The position numbers and the translations under genes were made by a program. A stretch of DNA of 49,874 nt, taken from contig JAJZQS010000003.1 in assembly GCA_021806745.1 (NCBI GenBank), positions 1-49,874 of the forward strand. The letters are read 5' to 3'. Shown here piece after piece: positions 3 to 31,719 of this stretch (positions are counted from its first letter, which is position 1; the number at the start of each line of letters is the position of its first letter). Source of the stretch: a bacterium. GTDB taxonomy: Bacteria; Elusimicrobiota; Elusimicrobia; UBA1565; UBA9628. The notes below the pieces were generated by a model that ran no database searches, was not told the DNA's origin, and was given only the letters and a program-made list of their open reading frames with translations.

Positions 3-128
3 AACACCGACAAGGACTGCCCAATGATGCAGTTGGCCAGCGTCTCGGTGCAGGGCGACTACGCCGAGCTCGTGCCCGCGATCACCGCCGAGATCAAGAA
101 GCGCCGGGGCGCGCCGGTCGCGGCCTAA
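3..128 (+). CDS. etfA: Electron transfer flavoprotein alpha subunit, C-terminal fragment (gene starts before the window)
   Basis: Frame 3 reads NTDKDCPMMQLASVSVQGDYAELVPAITAEIKKRRGAPVAA*, matching the EtfA/FixB C-terminal pattern (IN.D..APIF..AD....GD....VP.L). TAA at 126-128 overlaps the convergent MFS stop. Confidence 0.8.
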   Translation, partial: NTDKDCPMMQLASVSVQGDYAELVPAITAEIKKRRGAPVAA

Positions 129-2236
129 GCCTTTTTCGGCTGCGGGCGGTTTCCGTCCGGGAAAATCCAGCGCGGGATCATCCACTCCAGCGCCGCGGTC
201 AGTGTGATGGCGGCGGCGATGACGCCCATCGCCACGGGCATGCTCAGCCAGTCGAGCATTAAGCCGGCCGCCAGCGCACCAGCGGCCGCGAAGAGCATGT
301 CGACCATCGAGAACGCACTCTCCACGCGTCCGAGCTTGGAATCGTCGATCTCTCGGCGCACGATCGGAGCCATCACGATGCCCACGGGCGCGTGGAATAT
401 CTGCATGCCGAACTGGACGAGCAGCATCGTGCCAAGGGCGATCCAGAACATGTGCGGCGCCAGGAAAGTGGGCACGGCCCAGGTCAGCCAGAACAGCAGC
501 GAGGAGACCGCCGCCATCCGATAGAAGCGGCCGTGGCCGAGCTTCTCGATGAGGCGGTCGCCGCGCTCGCCTTCCATGCGCCAAGACGACAGGAAGCGCC
601 CCAAAGACTCGGCGCCCAGAAGCAGCCCGAAGATGCCGCCGGCGGTGGTCAAGAGACCGCCAATCAGCGGCAGGGCCAAGTGCGGGCCCGTGCCGACGAC
701 GAGCTTGATGTAATTGGGCAAGACGACGAAGGGCATCGCGTCGCCGAGAAAGGCCTCGACGGCGCCAACGGAGATCAAGGTCGACAAGGTCTTATTGCGC
801 AGGATGTAGGAAAAGCCCTGCGTGGCCTCGTGGGCGTCGAAGGCGCGCGCCAGGCGCTCGCGCCAGCCGAGGTCCGCCGGTGCCGCCGAGCCGGCGCCTC
901 TCTTTTTGAGAAGGTCGCGCAGTTCGCGCGCGATCGACAGCGGCGACAGCGCAAGGCCCTTGAGCAGGGCCCACAAAAACGACCCGGTGCCGCGCAGGAA
1001 TTCGACGAAGCCGCGCAGGCCCATCTCGCCGTGATCGCGCGCGTCGCGGACCATCAGCCAGTAAAACGGCACGGAGGCGACGAGCAGCGCGGCGTAGACG
1101 CCGTAGGCCAGTGCGTAGCCGCCCATGCCGAAAGCGCTCACCAAGCCCGCCACCGTGGCGCCGGCGGCCAGCGGCACGAACACCTCGACGAGCGCCGACC
1201 ACTTGCCCAGCACCGCGCTGGCCTCTTTGTTGAGTTTCTCGTCCTTGCCCAAAAAGGACATGCGCGCCGCGCCGTCGGCGACGATCATCGTGCTTTGGAA
1301 CAGCGGATTGATCGCGACTATGGCCACGAGCACCGCGAAACTCAGGTGACCGGACAAAAACAGAATGGGGATGGCGCCCATGAGAGCCGCGCGCGCCAGC
1401 GCCATGCTCACAAAGAGCACTCGGAAATCGGTCTTGTCGATGAGCAGCCCCACCGGCAGGAGGTTGACCAGCGACATCGAGCCCATGTGCACATTGCGCA
1501 CAAATCCCATCACCGCCAGGCTTTTCTTAAGCGCGTTCATGACCAGAAACGGCTGGCTGATCATGTGCAGTTCGATGCCGGACACGGTGAGCAGGTCGTG
1601 CCCGATGAACACGCCCCACAGCGAGCGCGGCAGCTTGGTCTTGCCGCCCTTGGGGGCGGGAGCCAGTGGAGCGGCGGGTGCCTTCGCGTCGCCGGGAACC
1701 GGCGCCGCCGCCGGAGCGTCCGCGGGCCCCGAGACTCCGTCGAAGATCTTGCCTGATCTGTCGCCGGAATCCGCCGCGGCCGACAGGCCGACGAACGCCC
1801 GGCGCGGCGCGGCCGCGGAACGCGAAGCCGCAACGGGAGCGCCCGCGGCGGCTGCGGCCCACGCCGAAGGGGCGGTCCCGTAACCGTCGAGCTCAGGTGC
1901 GGAGGCGGGCGGCGCCGCTTCGACTGGTGAGGCCGCGGGGGCGGCCAAAATCGCGGCGCGAGCGGCCGAGGGAGCCGCGGCGCCAAGAGCGGGCAGGGCG
2001 GGAGCGGCGGCGGCCGGAGCCGCCAACGACGACGCGAGCGGCACGGAAACCACCGCGAGGGCCGGTGAAACGGGGGTCGCCGCGAGGGGTGCGATCTCCG
2101 CGGGAACCGCCAGTCCCGCCGCGGAAGCGACGCCGGCCGCCTCGGCCACGGCCGCATACGCGCGCGGACCCGGGCAGAGGGCAACCACGGAAACGGCCGC
2201 GACCAACGCCGTCAGACGAGCGCAAATCCGCATCAC
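125..2236 (-). CDS. MFS transporter with N-terminal signal peptide and ~200-aa Ala/Pro-rich extension
   Basis: Two blocks of hydrophobic helices with MFS motif-A-like GLLIDKTDFR and a C-terminal 'KLGRVESAF...G.MLD' segment. N-terminus MMRICARLTALVAAVSVVALCPGPRAYA resembles a Sec signal peptide. Confidence 0.8.
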   Translation of the reverse strand: MMRICARLTALVAAVSVVALCPGPRAYAAVAEAAGVASAAGLAVPAEIAPLAATPVSPALAVVSVPLASSLAAPAAAAPALPALGAAAPSAARAAILAAPAASPVEAAPPASAPELDGYGTAPSAWAAAAAGAPVAASRSAAAPRRAFVGLSAAADSGDRSGKIFDGVSGPADAPAAAPVPGDAKAPAAPLAPAPKGGKTKLPRSLWGVFIGHDLLTVSGIELHMISQPFLVMNALKKSLAVMGFVRNVHMGSMSLVNLLPVGLLIDKTDFRVLFVSMALARAALMGAIPILFLSGHLSFAVLVAIVAINPLFQSTMIVADGAARMSFLGKDEKLNKEASAVLGKWSALVEVFVPLAAGATVAGLVSAFGMGGYALAYGVYAALLVASVPFYWLMVRDARDHGEMGLRGFVEFLRGTGSFLWALLKGLALSPLSIARELRDLLKKRGAGSAAPADLGWRERLARAFDAHEATQGFSYILRNKTLSTLISVGAVEAFLGDAMPFVVLPNYIKLVVGTGPHLALPLIGGLLTTAGGIFGLLLGAESLGRFLSSWRMEGERGDRLIEKLGHGRFYRMAAVSSLLFWLTWAVPTFLAPHMFWIALGTMLLVQFGMQIFHAPVGIVMAPIVRREIDDSKLGRVESAFSMVDMLFAAAGALAAGLMLDWLSMPVAMGVIAAAITLTAALEWMIPRWIFPDGNRPQPKKA

Positions 2237-2242
2237 TCGTCT

Positions 2243-2310
2243 ATTGTCGCGAGTTTATATGTGGGACACGAGGGCCGATCGTCCTAGACGAGTCGCAACA
2301 ACTGGCCCAA
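2243..2310 (-). promoter_or_regulatory. Putative activator-binding element plus -10 box upstream of the MFS gene
   Basis: Minus strand reads TGGGCC..CGTCTAGGACGATCGGCCCTCGTGTCCCAC..GACAAT-N6-GTG. A near-identical element lies at 30858-30903. Confidence 0.6.
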
Positions 2311-2312
2311 TG

Positions 2313-3110
2313 TTAAGCCTCCATTGTTGGGGGAAGCGACGGCGGCGGCGCAGGGGGCGCAGGGGGCGCAACAGGCGGGTCGCCCAGTTTCATTTGCATT
2401 GGAGGGTCGTCGTTGATGCCTTTTAGTTGCAAGGGGTTGTTTGTCGCGCCGTTTTGCGCGGCAGTTGTGCTCTGGTTTTGAGCTACGTTCTGAGAAGCAT
2501 TTTGCTCCGCCTGGGTCGTCTGCTGAGTTGCTTTATCCTTGGCGTCCGCTTCTTTTTCCATCGCCATCTTCACACCCAGAACGACGAAGATCATTCCCAG
2601 CGCCATGAGCAGTCCGCCCTGCATGGTCTGACCGAACTGGTGCTGGATTTTGGACCCAACCATGACCAGCGCCAGTCCCAGGGCGGCGACGGTGAAGCCG
2701 ATGATCTTCTTCGCCTGCGTTCCGGGAAACTTGACCATGCTGCCGAGAGCCAAAAGGCCTCCCGCCAAAATCACCAAAAGCGTGGCAAGGTTGATGTCAC
2801 CCTGCCACGGCGTCGCGTTCACTGCGGCCGGCGTCGGAACATTGGCACTCGGAGAGTAGCCCTCGGCGTAATTATAGGACAGCGGAACGGTGCCGGAATT
2901 ATAGGGGACGACCGGCGCGCCTGAACCAGAACTGTCCACGTTCGCGGCCGCAGAGGCGTTGTCGTAGGTGCGTCCGGCGCCGGCGCTCGTCTGCGCGTGC
3001 GCGTTGTCTCCTAGGGCAGCTTGGGCCTGGGCACGGGTTTTGTCGGCCGTCGCCCGGCTCGTGGAAAACAGAAGAAAAAGGGCCGCGAACGCCAAGAGGG
3101 TTCTCTTCAT
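2313..3110 (-). CDS. Hypothetical exported/membrane protein (signal peptide, low-complexity region, 3 TM helices, Gln/Pro-rich tail), 265 aa
   Basis: Start re-called at ATG 3110 (MKRTLLAFAALFLLFSTSRATA), supported by the promoter immediately upstream. The upstream part of the 595-aa ORF is a shadow of the DHH gene. Confidence 0.75.
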   Translation of the reverse strand: MKRTLLAFAALFLLFSTSRATADKTRAQAQAALGDNAHAQTSAGAGRTYDNASAAANVDSSGSGAPVVPYNSGTVPLSYNYAEGYSPSANVPTPAAVNATPWQGDINLATLLVILAGGLLALGSMVKFPGTQAKKIIGFTVAALGLALVMVGSKIQHQFGQTMQGGLLMALGMIFVVLGVKMAMEKEADAKDKATQQTTQAEQNASQNVAQNQSTTAAQNGATNNPLQLKGINDDPPMQMKLGDPPVAPPAPPAPPPSLPPTMEA

Positions 3111-3117
3111 AATCGGA

Positions 3118-3146
3118 AGTATCGAGCTAAAACCTCTCCTTGTCAA
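3118..3146 (-). promoter_or_regulatory. Sigma70-type promoter, leaderless geometry
   Basis: TTGACA-N17-GATACT-N7-ATG(3110). Confidence 0.7.
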
Positions 3147-3184
3147 GGCGCGCGCCCGCGAATTACCGAACTTTAATTTTCGGC

Positions 3185-4219
3185 CTATTCGCGAAACGGC
3201 CAGCGGCGCTCGAGCGGGTCCAGGCCGAGGCTGGCCAGGAAATCGGCGGCAACCTTGTCCTCGGTCTCGCGCCAGCGCTCCTCGGGCGCGGCCTCGCCGA
3301 CCTCGCGCGAACCGCCGGCGATCATCGCGTGCCCCCCGCCGCGATTGCCGCCGCCGAGAAGCCTCTTGAGCAGGCGCCCCGCCCCGGCGCCGGGATCGTT
3401 GGAACGCAAGGAGACATGCAGACGCCCGTGGAAGCGCGCGGTGACGATCGACCAGCGCATGCCCTCGAGCGTCAACAGAAAATCGGCGATCTGGGCCACG
3501 CGGTCTGGAGTCTCGACTTCCCCCAGATGCACGCCGACCACGCGCCCGACGACGAACGCCCCGCGGATGGCGCGCGCGGTCGTCGCGAAGAAAGACTCCG
3601 AGCGCTGCGGGTAGGAGATGCGCCACAAGGCCTTCATGCTCGCCTTCGGCCAAAAAGCCTGGTAGGCGTCCATGTCGCGCGGCGTCGCCTCGCGACCCAA
3701 ATTCTGAGTCTCCGAGCCGATCCCGTAGACGATGCCCGTGGCCATGCGCCGCGGCACGCGCACGCCGGCCAACGCCAGCGCCTCCACCAGGACCGTCGTC
3801 GTCGCCCCCACCGCCTCGTCGATCAGCGCCAAGCCGGCCTGGGTGTCGGCGTGGCGGGGGTGATGATCGACGATCAGATCCGGCACGCGGCGCGGCGGGC
3901 AGCGGTTGTTCTTGAACGGAGGCTGCGTGTCGACCAGCGCCAGGTGCGGCGAGGCGGCGAGTTCTCCCTTGCGCAGAGGCCGCGCCGGCACGAGCAGACG
4001 CTCGGCCATCATCCGATTTTCCGCACGACCGATGGCGCCGCCGTAGACGACGCGGCAGCGGATCTTGCCCAGATGCTGCGCCAGGTGCGCCAGCGCCCAT
4101 GCGCTGGCCAAGGCGTCGGGATCGGGATGGTCGTGCGTCAGGATGGTCAACGGCGAAAGCGCGCGGCCCTTCTCGGTCAGGAACTTGACCAGTCGCCGCG
4201 CGTGGAAACCCGGAGTCAT
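3185..4219 (-). CDS. DHH/DHHA1 family phosphoesterase (candidate c-di-AMP/pApA phosphodiesterase or NrnA-like)
   Basis: Motifs THDHPDPDALAS, VDT, VDHH, SLRS, GGGH. The ATG at 4219 overlaps the cdaA stop (ATGA). Confidence 0.85.
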   Translation of the reverse strand: MTPGFHARRLVKFLTEKGRALSPLTILTHDHPDPDALASAWALAHLAQHLGKIRCRVVYGGAIGRAENRMMAERLLVPARPLRKGELAASPHLALVDTQPPFKNNRCPPRRVPDLIVDHHPRHADTQAGLALIDEAVGATTTVLVEALALAGVRVPRRMATGIVYGIGSETQNLGREATPRDMDAYQAFWPKASMKALWRISYPQRSESFFATTARAIRGAFVVGRVVGVHLGEVETPDRVAQIADFLLTLEGMRWSIVTARFHGRLHVSLRSNDPGAGAGRLLKRLLGGGNRGGGHAMIAGGSREVGEAAPEERWRETEDKVAADFLASLGLDPLERRWPFRE

Positions 4220-19047: not shown

Positions 19048-19127
19048 AGCGCGTATCATACTCGCGCCGGACCGCGCCGGGCGGCCGCGCACGCCCGCGC
19101 CGCGACGGCAAAAGACCTGGACGCGAA

Positions 19128-20198
19128 CTAGGCCTTATGGTCCCTGTGATCGCGCAAATCGCGGCTCAGGTCCGCCGCCTCGCGCAAGACGGCGGGCTCG
19201 GAGACCTTCAGGCCCCACAGCACCAGCACGCTCAGCAGGGACGGGACGACGTAGTAGCACAGGCGAAACAGCAGCGCGGCCACCAGGGACGCCCCCGCAT
19301 CCACGCCCATGCCCGCCATCAGCGCGGCGATGGAGCCCTCCGCCGCGCCCAAGCCTCCGGGCAGGACCGGAATCAGCGTCGCGGCCTGGCCCGCGGTGAA
19401 GGCCGCCACCAGCGCGGCCGGCGGCAGGTGCACGCCGACCGCGCGAAAGCACAGGCCGAACGCCGTCATCGCGAAGCCCCAGTCCAGGCACGTGTAGAGC
19501 ACGGTCGCCGTCAGCCGGCCCCGCCCGGAGCGAATGCGGGCCAAGCCTTGGGTCAATTGCATCTCGAAGGCCGTGAAATCCTCGGGCGGGATCTCCCTCT
19601 GGGACAGCGAGAAGGCCGCGCGATTGGTCATGCGAAAAAGCCGGTGGGTCAGGCGGCCGCGCGCCGTGCGGTTGAAAAAGGCCGCCAGGATCATCGCCGC
19701 CAGCGCCAGCAAGACGACCAGCCCGAACGCGCTCTCCAGCACCGCCACGCGCGCGCCGCCGGCGCGCAACAGCAAGGTCGCCAAGCCCTGCGCCAGGATC
19801 ACCGCGAGCACCGCGTAGAGAATGGCGGAGGTGACGGCCGAGGCGGTGATCGTCGTGGCGATGGGTACGCGCCGCTTGTGCAGAAGGTGCGCCTTCAGCG
19901 CGAAGCCGGTCGCGCCTCCGGCCGAGAGCATGTAGTTGGCCGTCGTCGACACCAGCGCGATGCCCAGAACCGTCGGCGCGCCGAGCGCGTGGCCGAGCAC
20001 CGCCAGCGTCTCCGACAGCGCCAGCCCGGCCATCGCGTGGCCGATCAGCGCGCAGACCAGCGCGCCCGCGACCCAGGCCCAGGACACGGCCTCGCCGGCG
20101 CGAAGGACCTGGTCCAACCGCGAGCCGACGACCGCGCCCAGCAAAAGCAACGCCGCTGCGGAGCCAACGCCCCAGACGATCACGCGCCGCCACTTCAC
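19128..20198 (-). CDS. Lysylphosphatidylglycerol-synthase TM / flippase-like (UPF0104/YbhN) membrane protein
   Basis: About 8 TM helices with IPVLPGGLGAAEG and LLFRLCYY motifs. GTG 20198 overlaps the upstream stop. Confidence 0.8.
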   Translation of the reverse strand: MKWRRVIVWGVGSAAALLLLGAVVGSRLDQVLRAGEAVSWAWVAGALVCALIGHAMAGLALSETLAVLGHALGAPTVLGIALVSTTANYMLSAGGATGFALKAHLLHKRRVPIATTITASAVTSAILYAVLAVILAQGLATLLLRAGGARVAVLESAFGLVVLLALAAMILAAFFNRTARGRLTHRLFRMTNRAAFSLSQREIPPEDFTAFEMQLTQGLARIRSGRGRLTATVLYTCLDWGFAMTAFGLCFRAVGVHLPPAALVAAFTAGQAATLIPVLPGGLGAAEGSIAALMAGMGVDAGASLVAALLFRLCYYVVPSLLSVLVLWGLKVSEPAVLREAADLSRDLRDHRDHKA

Positions 20199-30640: not shown

Positions 30641-30748
30641 GTCTTCCCTCGAAGTTGCGGACTCGAGTCGGTCGACCGGACTGATCGCTTGCGCGAATCA
30701 CCGTTGCGGGGCAGCCCCGGAATCTCACCGGGTTCCTCCGACTCTGAG
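30641..30748 (-). ncRNA. Cobalamin riboswitch (compact, class II-like)
   Basis: Minus strand GAGTCGG-AGGAAC-CCGGTGAGATTCCGG-GGCTGCCCCGCAACGGTGAT...AGTCCGGTCGA-CCGACTC, with closing stem, T-loop hairpin and B12-box-like elements. Followed by a CTTC-GAGG-GAAG hairpin over the RBS just before the btuB ATG. Confidence 0.85.
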
Positions 30749-30857: not shown

Positions 30858-30924
30858 TGGGCCCATCGGCACGCGCGTCTAGGACGATGGCCCCATGTCC
30901 CACCATGCGGGAGGCCGCTACGCT
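30858..30924 (+). promoter_or_regulatory. Putative activator-binding element plus -10 box (second copy)
   Basis: TGGGCC..CGTCTAGGACGATGGCCCCATGTCCCAC..TACGCT-N6-ATG(30931); matches the 2261-2310 element. Confidence 0.6.
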
Positions 30925-30930
30925 GTGCGC

Positions 30931-31719
30931 ATGAAATACCTCCTCGCCGCGCTTGCGACCGCCGCGGCCGCCTCCTCCGCCGCCGCTCAAAGCGCCCCCG
31001 ACGCGCGCATCGAAGCGTTGCTGTCGAACACCGGCTCTTTCGCGCAGCCGCTGGCCCTGCCCGCCGCGCCGTCCGCGGCGCCGCCCGCCGCGGCTCTCGC
31101 GCCCGCGCCGGTCGCCTCCGGTGCGCTCGTGCCTCCAGGGCTTTGGTCGACGCTGTCGGCGCCGGACTCCGCCACGCTGGCCTGGCTGGGCGCGCGAATT
31201 CCCGGGCTGGACCTCGGCCGGGTCCGCGTGCTGACCTTCGCCGACGCCGACGCGATCTTCGCCACCGCCGCCGATCGGCGGATGTCGCCGCTCGACGTGT
31301 TCTCCGATTCGGCGTTTCGCGGCGCCGAAATCTACTACATCCCCAAGGAGGTGATCGTGGAGATCTTCGCGCGCTACGAGATACGCGTGCTGACCCCGAT
31401 TTCCGGAACCTCCACGGACGGCCGGCCGTTCTCGATGCAGGCGCTTGTGCTCGGCGGCGGACGCGTCGAATCGCTCTACGATCTAAGCGATTTCGACGCG
31501 AACAACCCGATGTTCCCGGACTACACCTACAAGTTCTCCGGACGCGTGACCGAGACGATCAACGGCCCCGGCGACCTCGGCATCCAGGGCGTCTGGGTGC
31601 GCGACGGGTTCTTCACGCCGCGCATCGAGCGCATCGTGAAGATCTCCCCGACCGAAGGGCGCGTGGAGACCAACTACGGCAGCCGCGTCAAGCCGGTAAT
31701 GCCCATCAGCCGGCGCTGA
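30931..31719 (+). CDS. Hypothetical secreted protein with Ala/Pro-rich linker
   Basis: Signal peptide MKYLLAALATAAAASSAAA; strongly biased high-GC3 codon usage. Confidence 0.78.
   Translation: MKYLLAALATAAAASSAAAQSAPDARIEALLSNTGSFAQPLALPAAPSAAPPAAALAPAPVASGALVPPGLWSTLSAPDSATLAWLGARIPGLDLGRVRVLTFADADAIFATAADRRMSPLDVFSDSAFRGAEIYYIPKEVIVEIFARYEIRVLTPISGTSTDGRPFSMQALVLGGGRVESLYDLSDFDANNPMFPDYTYKFSGRVTETINGPGDLGIQGVWVRDGFFTPRIERIVKISPTEGRVETNYGSRVKPVMPISRR

Follow-up and report, generated by a model that had tools for sequence, protein, structure and literature searches.

A 16-bp palindrome shared by two promoter regions marks a predicted class-wide regulon in an Elusimicrobiota genome

Two upstream regions found in a 49,874-nucleotide stretch of an Elusimicrobiota genome (the window, that is, the whole stretch of DNA that was analyzed) have a core in common, which belongs to a 16-bp palindrome found throughout the genome (TRGGHC-YWWR-GDCCYA in its symmetrised PWM). 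Here it is proposed that the two copies, named A and B, are probably promoter-proximal operators of a class-wide regulon under an activator of the DevR(DosR)/LiaR type, P0005/P0006. In this proposal we infer binding by P0005/P0006, the transcription starts, and activation rather than repression. The features of the two copies and of the genes behind them are the following.

125..2236, minus strand: target gene 1 (P0001, 703 aa), GTG start, MFS-like membrane protein.
2248-2243, minus strand: -10-like hexamer GACAAT of copy A, 6 nt before GTG 2236.
2268-2261, minus strand, and 30896-30903, plus strand: block TGTCCCAC, in the -35 region, directly 3' of site B.
2271..2286, minus strand: site A, 16-bp box TAGGACGATCGGCCCT, PWM 12.2 bits, predicted promoter-proximal operator of the MFS-like gene.
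2290-2278, minus strand, and 30876-30888, plus strand: 13-mer CGTCTAGGACGAT, exact in both copies.
2309-2304, minus strand, and 30858-30863, plus strand: TGGGCC block, read from the sequence.
2304..2309, minus strand: the same TGGGCC as distal half-site of copy A, 23 nt upstream of site A.
30858..30873, plus strand: weak distal box TGGGCCCATCGGCACG of copy B, 22 nt upstream of site B, PWM 4.1 bits.
30880..30895, plus strand: site B, 16-bp box TAGGACGATGGCCCCA, PWM 16.6 bits, predicted promoter-proximal operator of the secreted-protein gene.
30919-30924, plus strand: -10-like hexamer TACGCT of copy B, 6 nt before ATG 30931.
30931..31719, plus strand: target gene 2 (P0002 read from Met13, 262 aa), exported, with signal peptide.

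The sequence-only reading that drew attention to these regions had described three collinear blocks in the two copies, and all of them are present at the coordinates that it gave. Its distances from the end of the 13-mer to the start codon (41 nt to GTG 2236 and 42 nt to ATG 30931), its -10 box 6 nt before both starts and its additional half-site 22-23 bp further upstream were likewise recovered, the last one as TGGGCC in copy A and as the 4.1-bit box in copy B. The TGGGCC of copy A fits T[AG]GG[ACT]C, the motif's left half-site, and is possibly a weak secondary box, with no full box scored by the PWM at this distal position; TGGGCCCATCGGCACG is the second-best PWM window of promoter B and lies 61 nt from the -10 box. 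The distance from the start of the box to the -10 hexamer is 38 nt for site A and 39 nt for site B, and the distance from the block TGTCCCAC, which includes the right-half-site-like GTCCCA, to the -10 box differs by 3 nt between the copies. Both sites have an atypical GAT[C/G] center, and the final A of the box is present in site B and missing in site A (T at A16). Copy A fills a gap of 76 bp that follows the stop codon of a gene in the same orientation (real start at about 3110), and copy B lies in a divergent region, with a cobalamin riboswitch (30671-30736, minus strand) ahead of a TonB-dependent receptor. A third look-alike had also been suggested at 19129-19145; it is not a member, scoring 2.1 bits with a center of 5 nt and not 4, overlapping the upstream stop codon and lying 85 nt away from the next gene's -10 box.

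The translation of P0001 includes a hydrophobic N-terminal signal, an Ala/Pro-rich stretch and an MFS-like membrane domain, the latter with a weak match to Pfam MFS_1 (E 1.4e-5, below the Pfam cut-off). Of the two genes previously read as encoding exported proteins, gene 2 keeps this description, while gene 1 encodes a membrane protein and not a soluble exported one. P0002 has no Pfam match and no known family, no usable hit in the Atlas look-up and no relatives in a separate related-locus search; its matches at E<=0.001 are found in 9/37 other genomes of the genus, the best five with 47-64% identity. A paralog of P0001 (G000:C58:17927-20545) also has a box upstream.

In the whole genome (G000; 2.78 Mb, 68.8% GC), 11% of which is intergenic, the pattern T[AG]GG.C.{n}G.CC[CT]A yields 54 intergenic strand-hits with n=4 and 0-10 with the other spacings tried. 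PWM sites of >=14 bits are intergenic in 38/44 cases (p=3e-29 against the 11% share), an excess that is partly circular because the PWM was trained on intergenic hits; the untrained regex scan is free of this circularity. The search for TAGG...GGCCC was the one that first revealed further upstream regions with the same spacing. The further copies that a genome scan was expected to reveal amount to 65 intergenic sites of >=10 bits, and the regulon would comprise about 40-65 sites in this genome. In the PWM columns, G4, C6, G11 and C13 reach 100%, G3 and C14 97%, and T1 and A16 88%.

The promoters into which these boxes fit were described on a gene set of our own codon-bias calls (2426 genes, 90% coverage). 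Among the 836 genes with an upstream spacer of >=50 nt, TAnnnT peaks at -15..-11 from the start codon (233 in the bin), and the promoters aligned on TAnnnT have an extended -10 (T 43% at -3, G 60% at -2) and only a faint -35. The peak and the alignment together indicate that leaderless transcription is common in this genome, so a -10 box 6 nt before the start is normal and not peculiar to the two window genes. At copies A and B, transcription would presumably begin at the start codon itself. That the box might be a general promoter element was considered and rejected, the aligned leaderless promoters having no signal at -50..-35.

All site positions were taken relative to predicted -10 boxes and start codons, with expectations drawn from 20,000 intergenic positions picked at random. 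For 14/65 sites of >=10 bits, including A and B, a -10 box followed by a start codon is found 37-40 nt after the start of the site. Under a strict promoter signature (TAnnnT, 5-8 nt, ATG/GTG, then >=80 open codons), 7/38 sites of >=14 bits lie at 38-40 nt (~0.2 expected, p=1.6e-9) and 8/38 at 61-64 nt (~0.15 expected, p=2.1e-12). The 61-64-nt class corresponds to the distal member of a pair, with tandem boxes 24 bp apart at six loci of this genome. The positional bias that the sequence-only reading had proposed to test for near -42 is sharp when expressed relative to -10 boxes and starts, and with transcription beginning at the start codon, the center of the proximal box would fall at about -42.5 to -44.5. 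The TG of the extended -10 occurs in 1/12 promoters with a proximal box and in 170/482 without it (p=0.04, a comparison resting on 12 promoters). The grammar suggested by these alignments is that of a leaderless promoter with a -10 box 6-7 nt before the start and the box 38 nt upstream of the -10.

The position of the box is also kept in other species. For orthologs and paralogs of both window genes in further species of the genus, 13 promoters were aligned by their -10 box and scanned with PWM windows at 30-74 nt; the best window lies at 38-39 or 61-63 nt in 12/13, which amounts to a footprint and not to 12 independent trials since the promoters are related by descent. In the promoters orthologous to site A the box is kept at 38-39 nt, with a box also at 60-63 nt, and in the orthologs of site B (L032-L035) it is found at 61-62 nt; these distances are the same although the sequence has drifted.

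The targets of the boxes are mainly genes for exported proteins. With a home-made and crude export-signal test (charged N-terminus followed by a 10-residue hydrophobic window), 31.6% of all 2426 genes and 34.6% of the 900 genes with >=50 nt upstream are positive, compared with 24/34 targets of sites >=18 bits (p=2.9e-5 vs the 34.6% background) and 31/50 targets of sites >=12 bits. Several of the negatives resemble signal peptides without a basic residue. The enrichment for signal-peptide genes that had been predicted is thus present. The idea of a regulon of signal-peptide proteins with Ala/Pro linkers stands for export, and it does not stand for the confinement to Ala/Pro-linker proteins, and some cytoplasmic divergent genes are included. 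Of the 48 targets outside the window, all searched against Pfam, 25 match no family. Among the exported or envelope families are RNase T2, Endonuclease_1, Phosphoesterase (PF04185) and PLD; the proteases include subtilase S8, trypsin and Met-zincin; and other exported or envelope targets are GH15 (glucoamylase), ChaN, an outer-membrane efflux protein (OEP) and a second MFS-like protein. The cytoplasmic targets, mostly on the other side of divergent spacers, include RmlC, RmlD, PGM/PMM, RecG, an aldo-keto reductase, an SDR and a helicase resembling DinG.

Two regulator families were surveyed, CRP and GerE. Only two GerE-domain proteins are encoded in the genome, P0005 (G000:C60:5218-5895) and P0006 (G000:C19:5045-5713), which are 76% identical and both combine a receiver (REC) with GerE. 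The best solved relatives of P0005 are VraR (7ve6, E 7.9e-39) and then DevR (E 9.2e-32); its C-terminal domain aligns without gaps to DevR 150-207, and P0005 and P0006 have Lys, Lys and Asn at DevR positions 179/182/183. Next to P0005 are a dCache-HAMP histidine kinase, a hybrid kinase, a lone receiver and an OmpR-type regulator. No box of >=8 bits was found in the first 12 kb of C60 and C19, the contigs holding P0005 and P0006, so autoregulation gives no support to the assignment. A second group of GerE proteins (helix 'NTVHVHRNNIM'), present in G111, G139 and G117, was also considered as the binder and rejected; it is absent from the motif-bearing G000 and G154.

The motif and its position can be compared with those of described regulators. 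PMC3177182 gives the DevR half-site as G4G5G6A7C8T9, read by the DevR C-terminal domain, and the Dev boxes as tandem, at -42.5 and -63.5, with a spacing of 21 bp at tgs1-Rv3131. In PMC13486717, the DosR box is centered at about -43.5 beside a suboptimal -35, its bases are read by Lys179, Lys182 and Asn183, and for activation the regulator touches the alpha subunit as well as region 4 of sigma. The Elusimicrobiota box most resembles the site of DevR/DosR, the dormancy regulator of M. tuberculosis: the two systems are alike in a palindrome with a GGGAC-type half-site, in tandem boxes, in a proximal box that here would lie near -42.5/-43.5 beside a poor -35, with transcription beginning at the start codon, and in the K, K and N of P0005 that align with the base-reading residues. 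It differs from DevR/DosR in the host phylum, which is Elusimicrobiota and not Actinobacteria; in a T/A-flanked box that is not extended to 18-20 bp and has A/G at position 2 and A/C/T at position 5; in a tandem spacing of 22-24 bp versus 21 bp at tgs1-Rv3131; in its leaderless promoters and the dCache kinase as the sensor adjoining P0005; and in targets that are mostly exported hydrolases and exported proteins of no known function, and not a hypoxia/dormancy set. P0005 is not a DevR ortholog, the full-length score being higher for VraR.

On the side of LiaR/VraR of Firmicutes, PMC4482077 gives the LiaR consensus as T(X)4C(X)4G(X)4A, with a primary and an adjoining secondary site bound by a tetramer. 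The T1/C6/G11/A16 of the box are exactly this LiaR skeleton; in addition, VraR is the best-scoring solved relative of P0005 and the targets concern the cell envelope. Unlike LiaR, which has Thr at the last of the three base-reading positions, P0005 and DosR have Asn there; moreover, there are no LiaF/LiaS-type neighbors beside P0005, and the Elusimicrobiota regulon is far larger. From LuxR, P0005/P0006 differ in having receiver domains, and no autoinducer-binding domain was seen in them.

The occurrence of the motif was followed with the IUPAC pattern through 201 Elusimicrobiota genomes. The own family and order have 12-51 sites per strand (21 in G000; control 0-4), families f5, f6 and f9 of the same class 0-20 (control 0-3; none in four f5 genomes), families f7, f8 and f10 0-2, and the 109 genomes of other classes 0-1. 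In G111, an f5 genome with loci of 42-52% GC, 6/10 inspected sites have a second box exactly 24 nt downstream, and at these tandem loci the -10 box lies 38 nt after the second box; by eye, at least 8/10 of the inspected sites precede genes with hydrophobic N-termini. The motif is thus class-wide, and the same layout is observed in a distant family of 45% GC. In the same 201 genomes, orthologs of the regulator (E<=1e-90, >=64% identity) are present in f1 (8/8), f2 (1/1), f3 (4/4), f5 (58/58), f6 (10/11, the 11th being split at contig ends) and f9 (2/2), and absent from f7, f8, f10 and f11 (0/8) and from the other classes (0/109). The ortholog is therefore found in all motif-bearing families and nowhere else; since motif and ortholog mark essentially one clade, a profile shared by many other genes in related genomes that are not independent observations, this co-distribution is a consistency check and not a statistical proof.

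In the proposed mechanism, a response regulator of the NarL/LuxR family and the DevR(DosR)/LiaR type, most likely P0005 and/or P0006, would bind as a dimer. Tandem boxes, of which the second and weaker one often lies 22-24 bp further upstream, would be occupied by two dimers, and from the proximal box the bound regulator would recruit RNA polymerase, as DosR does at about -43.5, at promoters without a good -35 and mostly without an extended -10. This would switch on mainly exported proteins, such as nucleases, a phosphoesterase, PLD, proteases, glucoamylase, two MFS-like proteins and many proteins of no assigned family. The fixed distance to the -10, the DosR-like geometry and the scarcity of the extended -10 TG speak for activation, which we infer from them, and do not amount to proof.

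The most serious alternative, which is unlikely but keeps an appreciable share of the probability, is that the boxes are true operators bound by another protein, of another HTH family, or that the bound factor represses. The assignment to P0005/P0006 draws on the resemblance of the motif to known operators, on three residues in the alignment and on a co-distribution at the level of one clade, from a survey limited to the CRP and GerE families, and two genomes have related regulators without a clear excess of sites: G117 (f5), with a 69%-identical ortholog, has 0 exact sites and 24 one-mismatch sites vs 35 in the control, and G125 (f8), with a 50%-identical relative carrying the same helix motif, has no excess of sites. 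A site that ends at the -35 could also occlude the polymerase. Against another binder, the motif fits both the LiaR skeleton and the DevR half-site, and the only two GerE proteins of G000 are both of this type. Against a repressor, the strict positions at 38-40 and 61-64 nt are typical of factors that touch the polymerase and not of mere blockers, and the extended -10 is rare in promoters with a box. Among the near-matches of G117, several resemble boxes with a TTTT/AAAA center.

It is very improbable that A and B are alike because a promoter was once duplicated locally, or by mere chance, and that their likeness has no regulatory meaning. The exact 13-mer occurs in only 2 places of the whole 2.78-Mb assembly, with 4 more at a one-base difference, and A and B have in common non-consensus letters beyond those needed by the motif, namely the flank CGTC, the center GAT and the block TGTCCCAC. 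A shared 13-mer somewhere in 50 kb is, taken alone, not remarkable; at <=2 mismatches the window has 4 matches vs 1.11 expected, and 4 were reached in 2/100 shuffles. The likeness rises above chance because both copies score as members of a genome-wide motif whose sites are strongly biased to intergenic DNA and to fixed positions, and because their boxes begin 38 and 39 nt before the -10. In addition, 13/2450 pairs of motif sites have an exact shared run of >=13 nt (13 for A and B), so the A-B identity lies in the upper tail, high but not unique for the motif. Other, unrelated site pairs share runs of 13-17 nt, no evident homology was found between the coding regions of P0001 and P0002, and the orthologous promoters of other species keep the box distances. 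With one mismatch allowed, the 13-mer matched in relatives chiefly within coding regions, as noise of the kind of CGTCGAGGACGAT, and this route was abandoned. The unusual [C/G]AT[C/G] center is common to A, B and one site on C173, and one may speculate on common descent or on a sub-specificity of one of the two regulator paralogs.

As a general background, class II sites, such as the lux box or those of CRP/FNR, are palindromes centered about 41.5-42.5 nt before the start, over a poor -35, and the CRP consensus is TGTGA-N6-TCACA, a palindrome of 5-6-5 geometry. A class II site of a CRP/FNR-family activator is a most doubtful reading of A and B, even if the 16-bp palindrome centered near -42.5 has this 5-6-5 geometry and G000 has 8 proteins with HTH_Crp_2 and cNMP-binding domains. 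It was rejected because the distribution of HTH_Crp_2 proteins contradicts that of the motif: no HTH_Crp_2 match (E<=1e-5) is found in G111 (15 sites, 98% complete) and G139 (18 sites, 96% complete), and all 5 motif-poor genomes tested have 1-4 HTH_Crp_2 proteins. Of the regulator types named beforehand, LuxR/NarL is thus kept, on the motif and the sole GerE proteins, and CRP/FNR is rejected on distribution. A structured RNA or DNA hairpin, whether it acts as a REP-like repeat, as the upstream gene's terminator or as a motif of the 5' leader, has next to no standing, although the box is palindromic and a GGGCC...GGCCC stem can be drawn in copy A just after the upstream stop codon. The variable symmetric positions do not covary (observed/expected complementary pairs 23/23.7, 11/16.2, 23/19.1 and 15/21.0), A and B fold differently and neither fold is unusually stable (z -1.61 and +0.74), there is no Rfam match except the B12 riboswitch, and a -10 box separates the box from the start codon. 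With 0/23 intergenic regex sites between convergent genes, the placement also speaks against the REP-like repeat that the sequence-only reading had named as a refuting outcome.

Nearly all members of the Elusimicrobiota are known from metagenome bins only. A search of a limited literature collection found no paper on transcriptional control and no described regulon in this phylum, and a search of the same kind with literal box strings found nothing relevant. What is gained here is a testable regulon, a promoter grammar and two candidate regulators. If the regulon is as proposed, DNA reading in the style of DevR/LiaR, with tandem boxes at about -43/-66, would occur outside Actinobacteria and Firmicutes, as the box sequences suggest. 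A broader reading is tentative, plausible but somewhat doubtful: one DosR-like regulator, fed by a periplasmic dCache sensor kinase, would be the master activator of much of the secretome, with its exo-nucleases, phosphoesterases, proteases, glucoamylase and many uncharacterized exported proteins, acting class-wide through rigid tandem leaderless promoters. If true, the box would be a sequence tag for the 'inducible secretome' of uncultured members, readable from their genomes. Because it flags many exported proteins of no known function together with scavenging enzymes, it would point to a nutrient-acquisition program that could be traced in metatranscriptomes. The class covered by this broader reading ranges from small genomes of 45% GC to groundwater and mine-drainage lineages of 69% GC.

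The box, a 16-bp palindrome and putative operator upstream of mostly exported-protein genes, also accompanies a relative of the MFS-like gene of the window. The genome (G000) encodes an 872-aa paralogue of this gene (G000:C58:17927-20545), with 30% identity across the membrane part, and the box TGGGCCGAAAGTCTCA lies immediately upstream of it. At G000:C30:6060-6099 and G000:C14:6112-6151, tandem boxes separated by a conserved spacer make up larger inverted repeats, as exemplified by GTCTTTGGGCCCA-N8-TGGGCCCAAAGAC; the spacer TGGCGCCA was found again at C14 and C26.

The candidate binder of the box, the REC-GerE response regulator P0005, is encoded in a signaling cluster (G000:C60:5215-10263) that also includes two histidine kinases, one of dCache-HAMP-HisKA-HATPase architecture and the other a REC-HisKA-HATPase hybrid, as well as a stand-alone receiver and an OmpR-type regulator. 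Located downstream are two hydrophobic proteins, for which no Pfam match was obtained, and an FtsH-like protease. The relative G117 (family f5, genus g24) retains a P0005 orthologue (69% identical); no exact box was found in its genome, and a TTTT/AAAA centre is frequent among its near-matches. In G117 the regulon may have been lost or the specificity shifted. The 2.8-Mb G000 has eight CRP/FNR-family paralogues (contigs C87, C117, C171 (twice), C179, C67, C75 and C175), whereas G111 and G139, relatives with genomes of 1.4 Mb, have none.

A whole-genome survey of the regions upstream of start codons showed that the leaderless design is common throughout G000, having a TAnnnT maximum at -15 to -11 relative to the start codon (233 in this bin; n = 836 genes), with an extended -10 TGn present and a merely faint -35. 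The features of the window concerned here are:

19055-19060 and 30919-30924: -10-type examples of the leaderless design
28711-30519/30639, minus strand: TonB-dependent receptor gene, downstream of the aptamer
30671-30736 (the AdoCbl model extends it to about 30745), minus strand: cobalamin/AdoCbl riboswitch aptamer, upstream of the receptor gene
about 2313-3110, minus strand: real gene inside a long ORF, by codon bias and signal-peptide start

The TonB-dependent receptor gene forms a divergent pair with the exported-protein gene of site B (30931-31719, plus strand). Upstream of site A, the long ORF (2313-4100, minus strand) is mostly a spurious, Arg/Gly-rich extension, and the product of the real gene within it is a small protein, either exported or located in the membrane, whose tail is rich in Pro.
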